In this document: positions 1,467 to 16,333 of the stretch, piece by piece
Position numbering within the stretch: the first letter of the stretch is position 1
Layout: each line of letters opens with the position of its first letter
Assembly: GCA_965235115.1 (NCBI GenBank)
Contig: OZ249443.1
Location: 2,418,001-2,482,000 of the forward strand
DNA from: Laetmonice hystrix
Taxonomy: Eukaryota
Length of the DNA: 64,000 nucleotides
Reading direction: 5' to 3'
Program-made: the position numbers and the translations under genes
Notes under the pieces: model-generated
Databases searched by the model: none
Told to the model about the DNA's origin: nothing
Seen by the model: only the letters and a program-made list of their open reading frames with translations

Positions 1467-2017
1467 CCCATTACAAAATTAAAGGCCAGACTGTGATAAA
1501 ATAGTTTATTGTGGAGGTAAAATGACACATTGCGCGCAGAACTGCGCCAGGCGTATGTACACTTAAAAATGGAACATGTAAAAAACTGTTAAGAGCCTAA
1601 GTAAAAGGTAGGAGGCCGTAAAAACTTGTTAAGAACCTAAGTAAAAGGTAGGAGTCCATAATATTCAGATAAATAGATTAAGGGTTGTGGTGGGTGGGTA
1701 AAAAGAAACCCGTGTGGGCTGTCCGATGCCTTCGGTGCAAGTGTTGAAACAGTGGACGGTGTCCGTATGCTGCCGCTCCGGCGACACGTGACCTTGTCAC
1801 GTGATAGTGTGTGGTTTTGGCCGTTTGTAATGTCCCGCGATTACATATCATCATGCAATTGCAGGCCCCATTACAAAATTAAAGGCCAGACTGTGATAAA
1901 ATAGTTTATTGTGGAGGTAAAATGACACATTGCGCGCAGAACTGCGCCAGGCGTATGTACACTTAAAAATGGAACATGTAAAAAACTGTTAAGAGCCTAA
2001 GTAAAAGGTAGGAGGCC
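1467..2017 (-). repeat. 3' split-direct-repeat block B1-A2-spacer-B2 of the Ngaro element
   Basis: The 151-bp B repeat at 1467-1617 equals 1867-2017 (offset 400, no mismatch seen). The 168-bp A2 at 1701-1868 equals A1. B carries minus-strand AATAAA (plus tttatt near 1505 and 1905). The spacer has an imperfect extra copy of the B end (1619-1657). Confidence 0.95.
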
Positions 2018-2029
2018 AAACCGTAGGTA

Positions 2030-3942
2030 TTATAAATTTTGAAAGGCTTTGTGGACGGACGTCTGCTGCATTACATGTGGGCGGATATAGTTCCTAACTG
2101 CCTCCGTCCTCCAGGTGCCATGGCTCATTACGTCCTGTATGTTGGCCCCGCCATGGAAGGCATAGGACGCACCCCCACGGCGTAGGCTGTGGAGGGAGAT
2201 GTGCGCGGGATCTTGTCCCACCCTCGTCAACAGGTCTGCCCATAGGAGATTTCATGTTTACAAACATGGGGGTGATTCGCGCATGCGCATGACTGGCGCC
2301 ATGACTCTGGCTGGCAGAAAGTACACACCAGCAGCTGTGTTTACTACCACTGACCACAGAGTCCGTCGGAAACTATGCTGCAATCATGGATAATAACTGG
2401 TCCGTGTACGTTCTAAACCTAGATAGGCTACAGACACTAAAGAGCGATGTAAAGCCAAACTTCAGTATGATGGCAGTTTGATTTTTAACTGACCCGTATT
2501 TCGACAAAGAAGGGTGGACTCGGGCCAGTCGGGCCCAGTCAGCCCGCGAGCCGTCACAGCTTCTTGACCGCCCGGCCCCCAGTGTTAGTTGACCCGGTTG
2601 CACTCTACCGACGAGCCGTACTGAGAGCGCTGGTTGGCATGCTCTCTTTCACTTTCAGTTTATACGTATGTAGTTTCTCATGTTTTTTTAAAAAATGAAT
2701 CCCTAACATTTTGTTGCATGGGACTGGGGAAACTTTTTTGACGAATAGACAGATGGAGGTAAAATACCCCCCCCCCCGTCATCTAAATTTGGGTAAAAAA
2801 GGGGAAGGTAACCACCAGAACACAAGCACGCGTGTCGGTGTACCCAGGTCCCGGCGTTCACGCAGCCACCCCCGGCACCGTGCATGCTTACACCCGTGGC
2901 CTGGGGCCCGTTGCATAAAAAAATCCCCGCCCGCTCCGTAAACCACCCAGACCTGATCTGTCCAGCCTTCCTTGACCTCGCTAATAGTGCTTAGTATGTA
3001 TACTGTGCAGGATACAACCATATTTGGTTGTTCTTCGAAAAACGTGCATAAACAGACAAAATACGGAGAAGAATCTGTATTGTTTACAGTGCATCACTGG
3101 CTCCATTGTTGACTTTCTGCCAGCCAGAGCGCTGTAGGTGGTTACGTAACCACCCCCGCTATCGGAAGTGACGTAGTGCCTGAAACCTCCTATTGGCGAG
3201 CGATGAAGGGGACGGTCATGGTATTCCCGTCCTGATACTGCAGCAGGGGCTGGTCCATGGCCCGGGTCGGCGATACCTGTAACAGGTCATTGTAGGCTTT
3301 GAGCGGGCAGAGGGGCGAGCCAGGAATCGCCACCAGATATACCGTGGTCGGAGTAGCTGATGTTTGCATCGTCTTCGACCACTTTAATGAGAGCAACAGG
3401 CCATGTGATTGGACCTCAATATCACCACGTGTCAGGTGGCGGGTAGCATCAAAGGCAGCTACAGACTTTGGGGCTATGTTGCTCTGCCGGACAAAGCCAC
3501 AGAACATAACAAGTAGGGCGAAACGGATTCTCCGGGGATATTGCAGGCAACGAATATGTTCCAAGCACCGCTTGAGTAGGTCCGGGGATACCGGGCGCTT
3601 GGCCCGCGGGGTGTGCCTAATGGTCAGTTCCAGGCCTCTAACCGCAGTCGCCACTTGCGCTGAGTTAAGCGCCGACGCAGGGAGGCCCGCCAATCGGAAG
3701 TAGGTCCTAAGGTGGGCCATGTGGTTCCTTATAGTGCCCGGCGTCAGTGAGTGCCGCGCCAGATATTCCAGGTACCAACATATATGGTAAGGCTGCGGGG
3801 CATCATATGCGATGTCAATCCTGACGCAGAACGCGACGTATAATCGGATCGCGCTCCGTCGATTAGCTGTCGTCCCTGGTCTGTGGGCCTGCCGCTGTCT
3901 GGACGTGGCTGCCCGGGCCAGGGTTGCAGTAAACGCATCTGT
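2030..3942 (-). pseudogene. Tyrosine recombinase of the Ngaro element, interrupted by a 948-bp TIR element
   Basis: N-part GFVRQSN (catalytic R) and KWSKT (K). C-part HSLRRGG (HxxR), HGTW and RNY (catalytic Y). Removing 2244-3191 plus one AT restores ...FIARQ-WADLLTRVGQD..., a continuous 321-codon frame. Confidence 0.92.
2244..3191. mobile_element. 948-bp non-autonomous TIR element with AT target-site duplication (ISL2EU/PHIS-like)
   Basis: TIR AGGAGATTTCA / TGAAACCTCCT (11 bp, 1 mismatch). AT on both sides (2242-2243, 3192-3193). Perfect 18-bp subterminal inverted repeat CTCTGGCTGGCAGAAAGT (2305-2322 / 3112-3129). No transposase ORF. Superfamily is inferred from the AT TSD. Confidence 0.85.
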
Positions 3943-5910
3943 TCAGAGAAAGGCAGAAAATGAGAACAGAGCATCGTCAACAGCGACATGTTTTAAGTTC
4001 ATTTGTATTACAAAGTTGTCAGCTAATGTTCTGGATTCATCTGATATGGTGACTCGGCTCAGGGCGTCAGCCACTACCATTTCTTTTCCCGGGATATGGC
4101 AGAACTCATACGACACTTGCTGTCGAGCAGAGTTGTACCAGACCGCCCGGGCGCAGGCCGCCAGGATGGGGTCCCGGGCACGCCCGAAGCGGAAGGCCTC
4201 GACGCTGGACTGGTTGTCACACATTATCTGAATGACGCCCCCCGCGTCCGACTTGCTTGTAAAGACCCTGGCGGCGGCCAGGCAGTTTATAGCTTCCAAG
4301 TGAGTTATATGGTGAGCCGCCCTCATTGCGTCGGGGAAGCGATATGCATAGTAGCGTGTGCCATCAGTGGCGCCACCACCTTGGAGGCTGGCATCCCCCC
4401 AGATGCGCCGGACAACAGTGCCTGTGGGGATAATCGCCTTGCCGTTGTAGGTTGGGAGGAAGCGGGCAAACCACGCGAGGTCTGCCTTCATTCCTGTATT
4501 AACCACGATTGTGTCGCCCTCTGCCGCTCTGAGTGCGGCCAGTAGTCTTCCAATAAAAAGTCGAGCAGGCTGGACGACTTTTGCCAGCTGGTTGACCAGG
4601 CCGACTATTCTCTGTAACTGTTTAACGGTAACAGTTTTCTTTAGTGATGATTGGGCCAAACAGTACTGTATTTGTTGTAGTTTAGGTTCTGGAATCGTCA
4701 GTAGATTTGTTTCTGGTATCTATATTAATACCCAACCATTTAACCGCGGTGAACGGAGGCTGAAACTTGTTGACCGCGATCTTCAGTCCGAGTTAAGGCA
4801 GCAGTTCGATTGCTTGTTCGTAGTGTTGATTCGCCTCCCGATGTGGTGACAGGAGGATTAAATCGTCCAGGTACATATGTCCCGTAATGCCTTTCTGAGC
4901 CAAGGCTCTAATAATAAATTCGGCCACCTTCTGCATGACATAGGACGACATCCTAGCCCCGAACGGTACAGCTTTATCAAAGTAATATGCCCCTTCGTGT
5001 TCCAGTACGAGAAGAGGCCAGTCCAGGGGACATACTGAAAAATGTCTGTATGCGCGGCTAAGGTCAATTACTGCCATTTTGACCCTGTGGCGACCCATTT
5101 TGTTTATTGTGTCAACAGCTGTCGGGACTGAGGGCAGGCTGTGCTGTACCTGTTGTCCGTTGAACATGTGCTTGTTTATGTTTTCATTAATCCCACCTTC
5201 TGGGTAGGAGAGATCTACGATGACCCTGCGCTGAGATGGGTCACTTTTTTCACGGGTCATCATTGGGCTGACTTTACACCAGGGCACAAATGGTGGAGTG
5301 CGATATGGTCCGCTTATGGCCCCATGTTGGAGTTCAATATTAATGTATTCGGTCACGTGGTCTGTATGGTGGGTAGCTGAGGGATGGTTATATGTCGTTT
5401 GTGCGTTGTACATTGGGCCACCATCATACTGCAGGGGGAATCCAAATTTAATTCCCTCGATTACCATTTGGTCATCATCGTGGCCTGTGGCGAGTTCTTC
5501 CCATTTATCTATGTTGAGAGCTGACGGGATCTTAAGTCTTGCTCCTTTGTAGTTCGGGACGCCGGTTGCCCTAACGGTGTCATATATGTGAGCGGTACAG
5601 TGGTCAACAAACATGGATGGGAATGGCCAATTTGCGTAGTTATTACCGTTATCACAGGGATTATTATGGTAGTCACTATCAGTGGGGCCAGGTAGCTCAT
5701 TTGCAACTAGGTCAAGTATGCTATCGAGGTAATGGGGGTCTTCTCTTCGAGGGTAGGGGTGGATGTGTGGGTATCCAATGTTTATTAAAAACCCGGGTAA
5801 CACTAAGCTTACACCGTCTGCATCTGTGGCTGGGTCCGAGTCATGTGACCTGCTTGGTGTCACATGGCCCTCTGGCGGCTGATCGTGTGGCAATATGTCT
5901 CGTGGTTGTC

Positions 5911-6526
5911 TAGCTGTCGACTCTAGGCGACTGGCGGGTTGTAGAACCCGCTTAGTGGTGTGACCGAGCCTGGGCTCAGTGTGACCGACGACGTTGAGGG
6001 CAGTGTCTGTGGTGGACACCAGCTGCTGTCTGGAGTGCGCGTCTCTAGCTGTCGACTCTGGGCGACTGGCGGGTTGTAGAACCCGCTTAGTGGTGTGACC
6101 GAGCCTGGGCTCAGTGTGACCGACGACGTTGAGGGCAGTGTCTGTGGTGGACACCGGCTGCTGTCTGGAGTGCGCGTCTCTAGCTGTCGACTCTGGGCGA
6201 CTGGCGGGTTGTAGAACCCGCTTAGTGGTGTGACCGAGCCTGGGCTCAGTGTGACCGACGACGTTGAGGGCAGTGTCTGTGGTGGACACCGGCTGCTGTA
6301 TGGAGTGTAGTTCTCTGGCTGTCGACTCTGGGCGACTGGCGGGTTGTGGAACCCGCTTAATGGTGTGACCGAGCCTGGGCTCAGTGTGACCGATGACGTT
6401 GCGGGCAGTGTCTGTGGTGGACACCGGCTGCTGTATGGACTGTAGATCTCGGACTGTCGACTCTGGGCGACTGGCGGGTTGTAGAGCCCGCTTAGTGGTG
6501 TGACCGAGCCTGGGCTCGGTGTAACC
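5911..6526 (-). repeat. 135-bp tandem repeat (~4.6 copies) encoding 45-aa repeats at the Pol N-terminus
   Basis: ctgtcgactct recurs at 5914, 6049, 6184, 6319 and 6454. Peptide GHTEPRLGHTTKRVLQPASRPESTARDAHSRQQPVSTTDTALNVV. Confidence 0.95.
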
Positions 6527-6553
6527 GGTGGCATTATTATTATGTTTCTTACG

Positions 6554-6598
6554 GCGCGCCTGCGAAGAGTGTTCGGCAGGCACGCAGCTTAGTTTTTT
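6554..6598 (-). promoter_or_regulatory. Candidate -1 programmed ribosomal frameshift signal (gag to pol)
   Basis: A_AAA_AAC heptamer (6598-6592) directly before the gag TAA. A 6-nt spacer, then hairpin GCGTGCCTGC...GCAGGCGCGC (6585-6554). The -1 frame is the RT frame. Confidence 0.72.
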
Positions 6599-7815
6599 GG
6601 TCTGCCGTTTTCATTCCCCCACTGTCCCTTGCGTTCCCGGTCAGTCCACTGAGAGTTTCGGGCGTGGGCGTGTTCAGGCTGCCTGGCCATGAGCCGCTTT
6701 TTACGATTACAGTGTTTTGCAGAGTGGTTGCACTCTTGTCCCACTCCATAGAAACATACGGCACAGTAGTGTGTCATGTGGAGGGCGCCCTCCACATGCC
6801 CGTGTGGTTCCTGACAGCCGTCGTCATTAAATGCAGGGCAGGGGGTGTCCTTTACATCATCTCGGCGGCCTTGCAGCCAAGAAAGTCTCATGCGCTCAGA
6901 AGCGAAAAGGCTACGGTCATGCCAGGTTGCTTGACCGTCGCGGACATAGTCCATGCACGTGTGTGACCAACCTCTGACTGCCCGCCACGCTAGGGTGGCC
7001 GCGTCCTCAGCTACCTGTGACAGGTGAGTGACCATAGCACCGGCCTCACTGTGGGGGTCTAACTGTGACTCTAACATTCGTGTGTAGCCGCACACGTACT
7101 CTGCTAACGTTATGTCTGTGCCAGCTTTCCTAGACTTAACCCTTTTCTTCATATCAGGGGGTAGATATTTATGTGGGCGTGTAAGTTGGCTGAATGGGAG
7201 GCTATTCCTACCTGTGGGTGCTCCCACTGTCGGGTACTGACGTGCCAGGGCTTGGTCCCCCAGTCGGCGGGCGTGAGGGTTGTCCATGATGTCCCGTGGG
7301 TCCAGGTCATATTCACTTTCGTCGTCGTCGGTATTGACCGAGGAGTCCGTTGTCCGGCGTCGCCTTATTCTGCCTGAATTGGTTTGGGCCGGTGTACGGC
7401 ATTGGGCAGGCTGTGACTGGCTGGTAGATGGTGCTTGGCTAGTGGTGGGCCTGTCCTGCGTTGGGGCCGGTGTGCGGCATTGGGCAGGCTGTGACCGGCT
7501 GGTGGGTGGTGCTTGGCTAGTGGTTGGCCTGTCCTGCGTCTGGTTTGGCCGGACCTCAGGTAGGCGGGCGTTGACCGTGTCGCACAGGCTCGTTAGCATG
7601 CGCTCCAGCGCCTGAACGCGGGTTTCTACCTGGGAGAGTTGGCTTGCCTTTGGCGCCTTCTTTTTTCCCGGCGTCGTAGTCGTTGCAGACGGCGAATATT
7701 GAGGAATGTTTTCTGCTCGTGCGTCTAATTCCAGGCCGTCGCCACTTTCTTCGGGCCGGTCGGTTTCGGTCTGCGCCGTTGCCATAGTTTGCTGGCGAGT
7801 TGCCCTGCCCGTCAT
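6589..7815 (-). CDS. Gag-like ORF1 of the Ngaro element (408 aa from the first ATG at 7815)
   Basis: Open frame 7932-6589. Low-complexity S/T/Q/P N-terminus. C-terminal Cys/His knuckle region CPAFNDDGC...H...HYCAVC...HSAKHC, typical of DIRS-order Gag. Confidence 0.85.
   Translation of the reverse strand: MTGRATRQQTMATAQTETDRPEESGDGLELDARAENIPQYSPSATTTTPGKKKAPKASQLSQVETRVQALERMLTSLCDTVNARLPEVRPNQTQDRPTTSQAPPTSRSQPAQCRTPAPTQDRPTTSQAPSTSQSQPAQCRTPAQTNSGRIRRRRTTDSSVNTDDDESEYDLDPRDIMDNPHARRLGDQALARQYPTVGAPTGRNSLPFSQLTRPHKYLPPDMKKRVKSRKAGTDITLAEYVCGYTRMLESQLDPHSEAGAMVTHLSQVAEDAATLAWRAVRGWSHTCMDYVRDGQATWHDRSLFASERMRLSWLQGRRDDVKDTPCPAFNDDGCQEPHGHVEGALHMTHYCAVCFYGVGQECNHSAKHCNRKKRLMARQPEHAHARNSQWTDRERKGQWGNENGRPKN
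7386..7539 (-). repeat. 78-bp (26-aa) in-frame duplication within gag
   Basis: QDRPTTSQAP(P/S)TS(R/Q)SQPAQCRTPA occurs twice; DNA offset 78. Confidence 0.9.
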
Positions 7816-7845: not shown

Positions 7846-8013
7846 AAAAGAAACCCGTGTGGGCTGTCCGATGCCTTCGGTGCAAGTGTTGAAACAGTGG
7901 ACGGTGTCCGTATGCTGCCGCTCCGGCGACACGTGACCTTGTCACGTGATAGTGTGTGGTTTTGGCCGTTTGTAATGTCCCGCGATTACATATCATCATG
8001 CAATTGCAGGCCC
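7846..8013 (-). repeat. 5' split direct repeat A1 of the Ngaro element
   Basis: Identical to 1701-1868 (offset 6145), from aaaagaaacccgtg to gcaattgcaggccc. Confidence 0.95.
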
Positions 8014-8566
8014 AAATACCCGTTTTCCTGGCATCTGGGAACAAAATCAAAGGCATACGGGCATTAGGCACTCTATTTATTTTTTTTATATTTTTTGAGT
8101 TGGGGGGGGGTTCGTACGAACCATTCGAACCCCCCTGGATCCGCCCCTGGGGGGGGGGGGGGGGTCCAACACATGATCAAGTAAGGAAAACGTAGACTGA
8201 GTTGGTTTTTTTTTGCGTGATATGCCGTTTATTACAGTAGACATGCAGTTCTATCATGGAATACAGATTCCTCATAATACTGTGACGACTGCTACTCTGG
8301 TCTAGATGTGTGGGGAACCATACACAAGTATAATGCATCTCTATATCTAAAATATACGTCCTCTTCTCTAAAATAGATGGCCCGAGGCGCCCTCTATCGG
8401 TGTACAATGACATTAACTCATGACGCATGCGTACGGGTCTGTAAAGGCTATGCATCAATCAACAGGTTATGTTTGTGCTTACATTCTATGATACAGATAT
8501 GTGTACTGATATTCCTCCCTATACACATGGATCACAATCGACACATTCTCATCACCTTCTATCGGT

Positions 8567-13300: not shown

Positions 13301-14782
13301 AAGATGTGCTAGAACAAACAACCCTATGTGTCCAATCAGAACTTTCCATATCAATGTGAAAATCAAAAATATATGGACAACTTGAATAATGCCTGACCCA
13401 TCCCCCCCCCCCACCCCTCACCCGTCCCCCCTCACCCCTCACCCCTCACCCAGGATACAGTCTCAGGTTGAAATATTGTAACTGTATCAAAGGATACACC
13501 AAAACTAGAACAATAATATAGCAGTATACGCTTAGTTACACTAGCCCAGGTTACAAGCAGGTTTGTCTAGATCAACTAGCAACAATATTTTCTGAAAACA
13601 ATGCCAGCTTTATCAGTATGACAAGATCGTCTAACATATATCTGAAAAGGATCTACATTATATGTACCGGTATAGCATCTAAAATAATACCAGCTACACA
13701 AATATCGGATAAATATGCGTAGCACTCAATATATATAATATACAATACATATACTTGGCGTTTCTCAATGCTACAAATATATGCTTCTCTAATGTTGCTC
13801 AAACTGAGCCTTGGTCTCTCAATTCACCACTGAATATAAATATATACTAGCTATCACAATGTGTCTAAAGATATATGTATATTTATTTATATAATATGTA
13901 ATAGGCAACTATGTATAACAGGCAACTATACGTGTCTATTAGATAACATCACCCATCTAGTTACCTACTGAGATACATGATCTAGTTACAGATCTGCGCT
14001 CACAAACCTGTCTCAACACTTCATACCAAAAATCACATCTCCCTCTCCATGGTCTGTACACTATACACACAGAAATAGCCACACAGTGGGCCATCCCACA
14101 AACAAGTCAGTACTGATGCATCCAGGGGAAAAAATTCCGAACAGAAATCAATAATATCGTAACAATAGTGTAACATTGCATTCCATTGCTATCAAAACCT
14201 TCACTCTCTCTTGAACGAATCTTTTAACTCCTCAAAACTGCGACTGTTACGGATAATCTAAGAAAGGGGTTTTTGGGAATGACTCTTTTAATCCTTACAT
14301 GAATTCCTTGCCTGAAATTGTCCAAGAATTAGGATGTAGCCCGGATGCACCATGACTGGACTACTCATAGTCTTACTATAATAACCCAGGTGTGATCTCC
14401 TCTGATTACAAAATAAAGCTGACAATATCAAAACAAACTTCTCAAGTCACGATAGAGTCTGCAGCTACACCTACCACTGTCTGACGACTCGCAGCAACTT
14501 GAGAGGCACCGCGGGAGATCACACGCTGGGTACGTACCAAACTATATGACAATACAACAAGGGCAAGCATTTCTCACAGCTCACTATACCCTGGTCTCTA
14601 GCAGGGTGCTGGTCCCGTTTTGTACATTGGCAATGATGCCCAAATATGGAGGCACCAGCCATGATAATAATGTTATGATGCCATGTGTGTCCAATCGACA
14701 GTCTGACCAACGATGGAAGTACAAATTGCTGAAAACCATTCTGTCAGGTCTGTGCATCCCAAGATCTGTCCAAACTAAGCAA

Positions 14783-15148
14783 CAAAATGACGCCACTGTG
14801 TCCCAACAAGGCATCAAAATGACGCCACTGTGTCCCAACAAGGCATCAAAATGACGCCACTGTGTCCCAACAAGGCATCAAAATGACGCCACTGTGTCCC
14901 AGCAAGGCATCAAAATGACGCCACTGTGACCCAACAAGGCATCAAAATGACGCCACTGTGTCCCAACAAGGCATCAAAATGACGCCACTGTGTCCCAGCA
15001 AGGCATCAAAATGACGCCACTGTGTCCCAACAAGGCATCAAAATGACGCCACTGTGACCCAACAAGGCATCAAAATGACGCCACTGTGTCCCAACAAGGC
15101 ATCAAAATGACGCCACTGTGCCCCAACAAGGCATCAAAATGACGCCAC
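14783..15148. repeat. 32-bp minisatellite, ~11.5 copies
   Basis: gacgccactgtgtcccaacaaggcatcaaaat, period 32 from 14789 to 15141. Confidence 0.95.
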
Positions 15149-15460
15149 ACATGTCCGAAGTAGGCATCAAAATGATGCAATGATGTCTTGATGGATACAA
15201 ATCTTAAAGTTGATGTACAACAAACCGTAAAGGCATGAAACATATGCAGGACACACTAGTAGTTTAACTGCATGCCTCATTCAACTGTCCGTACTACACC
15301 AGACATTTAGAGTTCACAAACAGACCTTCAACATTAAGTTGTATGTTCACCATCCAACCAAACATCACTGAAGTTATGTATGGTACCATTAACCATGATC
15401 AGATTTGTGCATACATACAGCAAAGATGGATCGTGCCCTCAGGCCTGTTTGGATCAGGGT

Positions 15461-15800
15461 CTCAGAACTGGGTGGATCAGGTATTGAAACTGGGTGGATA
15501 GGCCTTCAGAACTGGGTGGATCAACTCTCAGAACTGGGTGGATCAGGTATCGAAACTGGGTGGATCGGCCCTCAGAACTGGGTGGATCAACTCTCAGAAC
15601 TGGGTGGATTGGCCTCAGAACTGGGGGGATTGGCCTCAGAATTGGGTGGATCAACTCTCAGAACTGGGTAGATTGGCCTTCAGAACTGGGTGGATCAACT
15701 CTCAGAACTGGGTGGCTTGGCCTCAGAACTGGGTGGCTTGGCCTCAGAACTGGGTGGATCAACTCTCAGAACTGGGTGGATTGGCCTCAGAACTGGATGG
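15461..15800. repeat. Mosaic minisatellite with 21-25-bp variant units
   Basis: The core ctcagaactgggtggat recurs with ggc-, caact- and caggtat- linkers. Confidence 0.9.
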
Positions 15801-16333
15801 ATGAGGCCCTCAGACCTGGATCAAGCCCTGGGGCCTGGATTAATCAAGCCCTCTGGCCAAGTGAATCAATGTGTGGAATTTGCTTTCAGTATTTCAAAGT
15901 ATACATTGAGAGCATGACTGGTGACAGTCAGTCTTGGTGGAAGATTACAAGGTATATCTCAACCCTGTACATCATTCTGGCTGGACAGAGTACTATGGGC
16001 GATATTAGAGCTCTTAACCGAAACTGCCAGCTATTCTTGTGACCCAGCTTTTTTATAGTCCCTTTCTAAACATCATACAATACAGGAAGTGGAACTACTA
16101 GAAATACTTGAGGTTCACCTTCAGGAACAGAGGACACCAGGCCTCAGGGAGACTTCTGATACTGCGACGTATTTCTGAGATCATCAAAAATGTAAATACA
16201 TGAACCCAGCCCCATTTTTGTTAGCATCTCTGCATACACCATTCCTTTGGTTACCTAAGTGTATAAACTTCGGAAAGCGGTTCTAGTTTTTGAATTTGTA
16301 GTGGAAGAAAACATGGAAAACTGGTCATGATTA

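Follow-up and report, generated by a model that had tools for sequence, protein, structure and literature searches.

In retroviruses and gypsy-type elements, with their subgenomic env mRNA, and in foamy viruses, with their spliced pol, a 3′ gene is reached by splicing out pol while the unspliced RNA serves as the genome; env-type mRNAs keep few or no gag codons. For tyrosine-recombinase (YR) retrotransposons of the Ngaro type (order DIRS), programmed frameshifting has been proposed as the route to the recombinase (Poulter and Butler 2015, quoted in PMC13003380). Here, we describe an element of this type on the minus strand of a stretch of 64,000 nucleotides (nt) from Laetmonice hystrix (contig OZ249443.1, positions 2,418,001 to 2,482,000; the window), in which conserved splice sites would instead join the N-terminal half of Gag to YR, yielding a fusion termed Gag(N)-YR. 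While this kind of element is already known, the expression route was not found in the literature searched: no publication reporting the splice was identified, the string "splic" occurs nowhere in PMC3783388, PMC3266345, PMC8547959, and PMC9210276, and the available text of PMC7192593, PMC6681497, PMC9341512, PMC2632668, PMC12477816, and PMC9940879 contains nothing on it. The founding papers (Goodwin and Poulter 2004; Poulter and Butler 2015) may say more.

Judged by its layout and domain content, the element is a damaged copy of an Ngaro-type YR retrotransposon. Its open reading frames (ORFs) follow the order gag, reverse transcriptase/RNase H (RT/RH), YR, all on the minus strand, and its split direct repeats the order A1...B1-A2-B2, with the internal repeats located 3′ of YR. 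This matches the Ngaro definition, A1-gag-RT/RH-YR-B1-A2-B2 without a methyltransferase (PMC3783388, PMC4157794, PMC3266345). In Pol, no Dam or MT methyltransferase match was obtained with Pfam (one library, E up to 1), and Pol ends about 45 amino acids (aa) past the last RNase H motif. Assignment as DIRS1-like was rejected, as that class is expected to have inverted terminal repeats and an internal complementary region, whereas the element has direct split repeats; PAT-like was rejected because, although the split direct repeats are present, a methyltransferase domain was not detected. VIPER elements have the gene order gag, YR, RT/RH, whereas YR comes last here, so that this class was rejected as well. 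The VIPER order is consistent with PMC6681497. Two features set the present family apart: YR lies in the same frame as RT/RH behind a stop codon, whereas the published Ngaro expression criterion has YR overlapping RT/RH in the −1 frame and reached by frameshift, and the fourth ORF of Xenopus Ngaro, encoding an SGNH hydrolase (PMC9210276), is absent.

According to the route proposed here, which we regard as very probable, splicing would link the first 201 gag codons in frame to the YR gene, which lacks a start of its own, and would bypass both the remainder of gag and the entire pol. In sister copies with an uninterrupted YR, the resulting Gag(N)-YR protein would measure about 520 aa. The unspliced RNA would serve as the genome and as the mRNA for Gag and, via a predicted −1 frameshift, for Gag-Pol. 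More speculatively, and based on a crude heptad scan, the retained Gag half with its heptad segment might serve to recruit YR to the cDNA or to carry it into the particle. The initial annotation had already proposed that one transcript yields Gag, Gag-Pol, and Gag-YR; both the frameshift signals and the splice sites were found, the junction itself being predicted from sequence only. Its comparison with env holds in that the 3′ gene would be reached by splicing out pol, with unspliced RNA as the genome, as in env and foamy-virus mRNAs. The analogy is loose, however, since about 200 aa of Gag would be retained; across the elements studied here, 160 to 230 aa of Gag are predicted to be fused to the integrating enzyme, unlike in env-type mRNAs. 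Plant Ty1/Copia elements likewise possess a conserved alternative splice setting the ratio of retroelement proteins, but their splice yields Gag alone, whereas the one described here would yield the recombinase (PMC5580714).

Predicted splice sites and their conservation

The predicted donor is located 604 nt after the gag start codon, i.e., 201 codons plus 1 nt, and in sister copy L012 it is the sole site scoring at least 3.5 across gag and the 600 nt upstream. The acceptor AG (3940-3939, cut 3939/3938) is in phase 1 of the YR frame and has an AG-free zone of 66 nt upstream. Both cuts and their matching phase 1, as given in the initial annotation, were verified in the sequence, and the intron of 3.27 kb claimed to remove RT/RH was computed to span 3,273 nt. 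RNase H and YR indeed share one frame, parted by a single TGA (3943-3945). In all five sister copies spanning the whole region, this stop is kept, with no sense codon in its place, and the YR frame begins directly after it; there, as in the present copy, the first Met is codon 75, in agreement with the claim that the first 74 codons lack an ATG. Fusion of 201 Gag residues in frame to YR gives 520 aa in the uninterrupted sisters. That part of the claimed Gag-YR fusion stood, but not the inclusion of the whole YR in this copy, which carries a 948-bp insertion.

As the sisters are 97 to 99.5% identical and thus too close for a conservation test, divergent families were used instead. A genome search with YR gave at least 128 matches (125 of 350 candidates scored), from which 60 loci were taken and combined with three sisters. 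From these 63 loci, one without a YR start, four with a misplaced anchor (frameshift or deletion), and L059, which is described below, were excluded; the remaining 57 represent 33 families at a cut-off of <80% identity in the N-terminal part of YR. An acceptor was defined as YAG with at least 7 pyrimidines in the 14 upstream bases, 18 to 21 codons before a fixed YR anchor. By this rule, a phase-1 acceptor is present at the YR start in 27 of the 33 families, compared to one family for phase 0, none for phase 2, and a background of 7.4% when the rule was slid along flanking DNA. The base profile of these acceptors is animal-like, with T at −5 in 22, at −11 in 19, and at −9 in 17 of the 27, and the encoded residues are variable (D, E, G, A, or V after T, L, P, S, A, or V) while the YAG is constant. 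Because this interval had been chosen after viewing the data, the rule was applied to a held-out set of 50 metagenome loci, 28 of them with a YR start, which form 25 families at most 40% identical to any family described above. Of these, 14 have a phase-1 acceptor under the same rule (background, 9%) and 23 in a wider interval from −26 to −15 (background, 25%), with the other phases reaching 1 to 3 of 25.

For the donor, 28 Gag ORFs were aligned as protein, 18 of which form a group with a conserved Gly directly before the Gag core. At this alignment position, 17 of the 18 use the codon GGT, and in the one remaining ORF a GGT occurs two codons earlier. By comparison, GGT makes up 76 of 397 Gly codons (19%) in the background and 1 to 5 of 11 to 12 codons at seven other conserved Gly columns. 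The codon after the donor Gly starts with A in 17 of 18 cases, whereas GGT followed by an A-starting codon occurs at 3 of 49 other G-K/R pairs. Among the other 10 Gag ORFs, whose donor candidates were scored with a weight matrix, one decayed copy has lost the site, seven contain a phase-1 donor at a different place in gag, and two have phase-0 candidates only. Held-out loci with a match to the Gag core show a strong phase-1 donor just upstream of it in five of seven cases; for the two exceptions, the sequence scanned was internal to the core. Donor and acceptor phases agree in all 18 elements tested, and the predicted join produces open frames of 484 to 556 aa in 17 of them, the 18th being a broken copy. 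Conservation in other copies had been suggested as a check on the prediction, and families that are only 25 to 57% identical in YR indeed share the two sites as well as their phase.

Possible traces of splice use and alternative routes to the recombinase

Locus L059 (G000:C21:18661561-18671560) belongs to another family and bears on the acceptor only. Compared with its sisters, to which it is 99% identical, it has lost exactly 271 nt, from a GT inside RNase H to the acceptor AG; none of the other internal deletions listed ends at the acceptor (several of the listed entries are one event seen against several sisters). The locus lacks repeat B2 and has an open Pol-YR frame of 1,129 aa. The deletion suggests that a cryptically spliced RNA was reverse-transcribed and inserted.

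A second possible trace comes from database proteins. Of 293 YR proteins, 23 are extended at the N terminus by 100 residues or more, namely, 17 RefSeq models (Branchiostoma, Glandiceps, and Mizuhopecten) with a non-Pol N terminus, 4 Pol-YR proteins, and 2 with unrelated N termini. The models P0165 and P0182 from Branchiostoma (amphioxus) exit Gag at the Gly of [K/R]-G-K and then continue into YR. Their join Gly aligns with the donor column (hidden Markov model of the Gag core against unspliced Gag, E 2.5e-12 to 8e-5) and becomes Ala, as expected from a phase-1 join. RefSeq proteins named "uncharacterized" from Branchiostoma, Glandiceps, and Mizuhopecten (XP_078682739.1, XP_078682969.1, XP_077986280.1, and XP_021350861.1) have an N-terminal extension with a heptad segment joined to YR; mapping of the join was possible for two models, and in both it lies at this Gag glycine. 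All these RefSeq proteins are automatic gene models and are not described as retrotransposon products.

Several observations weigh against a spliced Gag(N)-YR. Given the post hoc choice of the acceptor interval and the shared ancestry of the families, the binomial P values (2e-25 and 1e-13) overstate the case. Six of the 33 families have no acceptor in that interval, four of these having their own ATG, and 13 of the 27 acceptor-bearing families have a Met in the open frame before the anchor, so that a nearly full YR could start there without Gag, which is not so in the family studied. The donor of L059 lies inside RNase H and is not the gag donor, its family is only 32% identical in YR, and microhomology of 1 nt (exact; 3/4 imperfect) makes a DNA deletion possible. 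No processed Gag-YR copy of the present family was found by an RH-YR DNA search or by a donor-region search, the latter giving 8 matches from 7 copies, not one of which stopped at the donor. YR matches with an open frame of 480 to 560 aa were likewise absent, except for one decayed copy, among the candidates scored (125 of 350, 150 of 171, and 150 of 209). The RefSeq models may be ab initio rather than RNA based, and four other database proteins join Pol to YR. Finally, a moderate hairpin lies downstream of the TGA (z −2.2; 195 of 200 shuffled sequences fold less well), in line with readthrough.

Readthrough of the TGA here, together with programmed frameshifting elsewhere, would constitute a route in which YR is made by ribosomal recoding from Pol as Gag-Pol-YR. 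A single in-frame stop parts Pol and YR in this element, in L080, and in L057; L059 has the open Pol-YR frame mentioned above, and Poulter and Butler 2015 call the frameshift probable (quoted in PMC13003380). Across 25 elements, however, the YR frame relative to Pol is the same in 6, +1 in 9, and −1 in 10, so that −1 is the commonest single class. This variation in offset, in contrast to the constant phase of the splice sites, speaks against readthrough or frameshift as the shared route. A variable frame relation is also described for Ngaro in PMC3783388, which notes for all groups that the YR frame can either match that of RT-RH or be shifted from it. A slippery heptamer is found in the Pol/YR overlap of 1 of the 25 elements, readthrough of a single stop, the alternative offered in the initial annotation, is workable in just 3, and in several the open YR frame begins only past the Pol stop. 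Recoding, which would require two recoding events in series and leaves the fixed YAG phase and the GGT donor codon unexplained, is considered improbable.

We give equally little credence to a scenario in which the splice is real but Gag-YR is incidental, the main product being YR started at an internal Met or a non-AUG codon, or a regulatory RNA lowering Pol. It would accommodate the Met preceding the anchor in the 13 families, often about 10 codons past the acceptor, and the setting of protein ratios by splicing in Copia elements (PMC5580714). In the present family, however, a start at codon 75 would drop the N-terminal SAM-like helices, and in L070 the first Met follows the acceptor by 257 codons; moreover, the phase match in 18 of 18 elements matters only if translation crosses the junction, which argues against an incidental fusion. 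Least probable of all is that the signals are by-products of protein constraint (the G-K/R motif, and Thr-Asp at the YR start) or of chance: GGT-AAG and ACA-GAT are among the possible codings of Gly-Lys and Thr-Asp, and the test interval was picked after the fact, but GGT with an A-starting codon is rare at other G-K/R pairs, the acceptor residues vary while the YAG stays, and the pattern was reproduced in the held-out set. From the structure of the element and from the position, phase, and conservation of both sites, we infer that the Gag(N)-YR splice is used in RNA.

Organization of the element and related copies

The features of the element are compiled in Table 1. Gag consists of a low-complexity N-terminal half, a conserved core, and a Cys/His-rich end; most of 17 families, as well as 8 RefSeq N termini, show a heptad segment similar to the one listed (crude scan, no control). 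The Pol frame opens just upstream of the gag stop, and the predicted −1 frameshift into it is supported by the slippery heptamer and the adjoining 3′ hairpin. Slippery-type runs occur close to the gag end in most of 18 families, as judged by eye. Runs of the type G_GGG_TTT, a second candidate slippery class, replace A_AAA_AAC near the gag stop in L063, L065, L070, L071, L074, L075, L077, L080, and L081. The region we take to be RNase H was named from its motifs and gave no Pfam match.

Table 1. Features of the Ngaro-type element (positions in the window)
Feature	Position	Strand	Basis or remark
Split direct repeat A1 (5′ end)	7846..8019	-	99% identical to A2
Split direct repeat B1	1867..2017	-	100% identical to B2
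Split direct repeat A2	1701..1874	-	Repeat comparison
Split direct repeat B2 (3′ end)	1467..1617	-	Repeat comparison
gag ORF, 408 aa (ATG at 7815, TAA at 6589)	6589..7815	-	Homologous to first ORF of other families
Heptad (coiled-coil-like) segment, Gag N-terminal half, about aa 57 to 78	7582..7647	-	Crude heptad scan, no control
Slippery heptamer A_AAA_AAC at gag stop, predicted −1 frameshift into Pol	6592..6598	-	Sequence
Hairpin 3′ of slippery site	6552..6588	-	z −3.09; 0/200 shuffles fold equally well
135-bp tandem repeats, Pol N-terminal spacer	5909..6530	-	Copy number varies among sisters
Reverse transcriptase, cut early by TAA 4793-4795	4793..5920	-	Pfam RVT_1, E 1.4e-8
RT end and presumed RNase H, after one-base insertion near 4706-4710, ending at TGA 3943-3945	3943..4719	-	
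YR exon, 5′ part (SAM-like helices, catalytic Arg and Lys)	3192..3938	-	Pfam integrase SAM-like, E 0.0013
YR, 3′ part (HxxR, H/W, catalytic Tyr, stop)	2030..2241	-	
948-bp insertion, short terminal inverted repeats, 2-bp AT duplication	2244..3191	.	Breaks YR in this copy only; absent from 5 sisters
Predicted 5′ splice site, phase 1, CAG/GTAGGA, cut 7212/7211	7206..7214	-	In conserved Gly of Gag G-[K/R] motif
Predicted coding exon 1	7212..7815	-	201 codons + 1 nt of Gag
Predicted 3′ splice site, T/C-rich tract + CAG	3939..3965	-	Overlaps Pol stop
Predicted intron, 3,273 nt (Gag core, RT, RNase H)	3939..7211	-	Inferred from sequence

The catalytic set of YR, R-K-HxxR-H/W-Y, is invariant in the alignment (R151, K189, H267, R270, H290, and Y301) and is split by the insertion in this copy. 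The insertion, a high-copy sequence with the ends AGGAG...CTCCT and an inner 23-nt inverted pair (2305-2327/3107-3129), brings the YR frame to a stop at 3190, so that the HxxR, H/W, and Tyr residues fall beyond its end. With a stop and a frameshift in RT and the catalytic end of YR cut off, this copy is nonfunctional. The insertion-less joint 2241-3192 is present in two sequence runs (contigs with flat depth, DNA-like); the joint 7212-3938 is absent from these two DNA-like contig runs, which says nothing about expression.

The RH-YR DNA search of the genome gave six full-length matches of the family among 11 candidates scored; in a seventh copy, the end of RH and the greater part of YR are missing. 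Sisters L012 and L013 are open throughout, encoding Gag of 450 to 451 aa, Pol of 933 aa, and YR of 320 aa. Two reading frames are open across the 135-bp tandem repeat, and the Pol of sister L014 is two units longer than that of L012 and L013. L014 (G000:C7:4611165-4621164) is apparently inserted in an ORF of another reverse-transcriptase-type element, as opposite-strand ORFs are found on both sides.

Other families show deviating arrangements. L073, L079, L084, and L087 represent distant split-repeat families in which a phase-1 acceptor is absent and YR starts with an ATG of its own, and in L073 and L084 Pol begins straight after the gag stop in the same frame; these families may follow a different expression plan. 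In the family of L052 to L055 (e.g., G000:C13:6356804-6366803), the open Pol frame extends over 939 aa, of which about 250 codons overlap with YR. This Pol extension has no Pfam domain; YR has its own upstream ATGs, and both splice sites are still present. L081, L083, L088, L089, and L164 are copies of a multicopy RT-less derivative that retains gag, both splice sites, and YR, and in a sub-lineage of this derivative with at least eight copies, a 199-nt deletion has removed the acceptor and the YR start. L017 to L019 (G000:C1:26.80-26.83 Mb) form a tandem array with a 4.1-kb period and decayed RH-YR sequence inside, near which an ORF with a GDSL/SGNH hydrolase domain is located (L019:6410-7156). 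A scan of viral contigs gave one distant locus. Elsewhere in the window, minisatellite arrays occupy 14703-15244 and 15461-15806, with periods of 32 and 22 bp.

Implications for YR retrotransposons

A broader reading, to which we assign an even chance, is that splicing to Gag(N)-YR is the ancestral general route of animal Ngaro elements. The N-terminal coiled coil of Gag would then act as a packaging tag through which the recombinase is assembled together with Gag, splicing would take the role of the retroviral Gag-Pol polyprotein, and many "uncharacterized" invertebrate RefSeq proteins would be such fusions.

For translation of the start-less recombinase of YR retrotransposons, the proposal in print is a putative frameshift. 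If true, the conserved splice would replace the frameshift model and provide exact junctions, and it would explain the free drift of the Pol/YR frame offset. The predicted form of the enzyme, about 500 to 550 aa including the N-terminal half of Gag, would be of use for biochemistry, and a set of invertebrate gene models would be relabeled as retrotransposon products.

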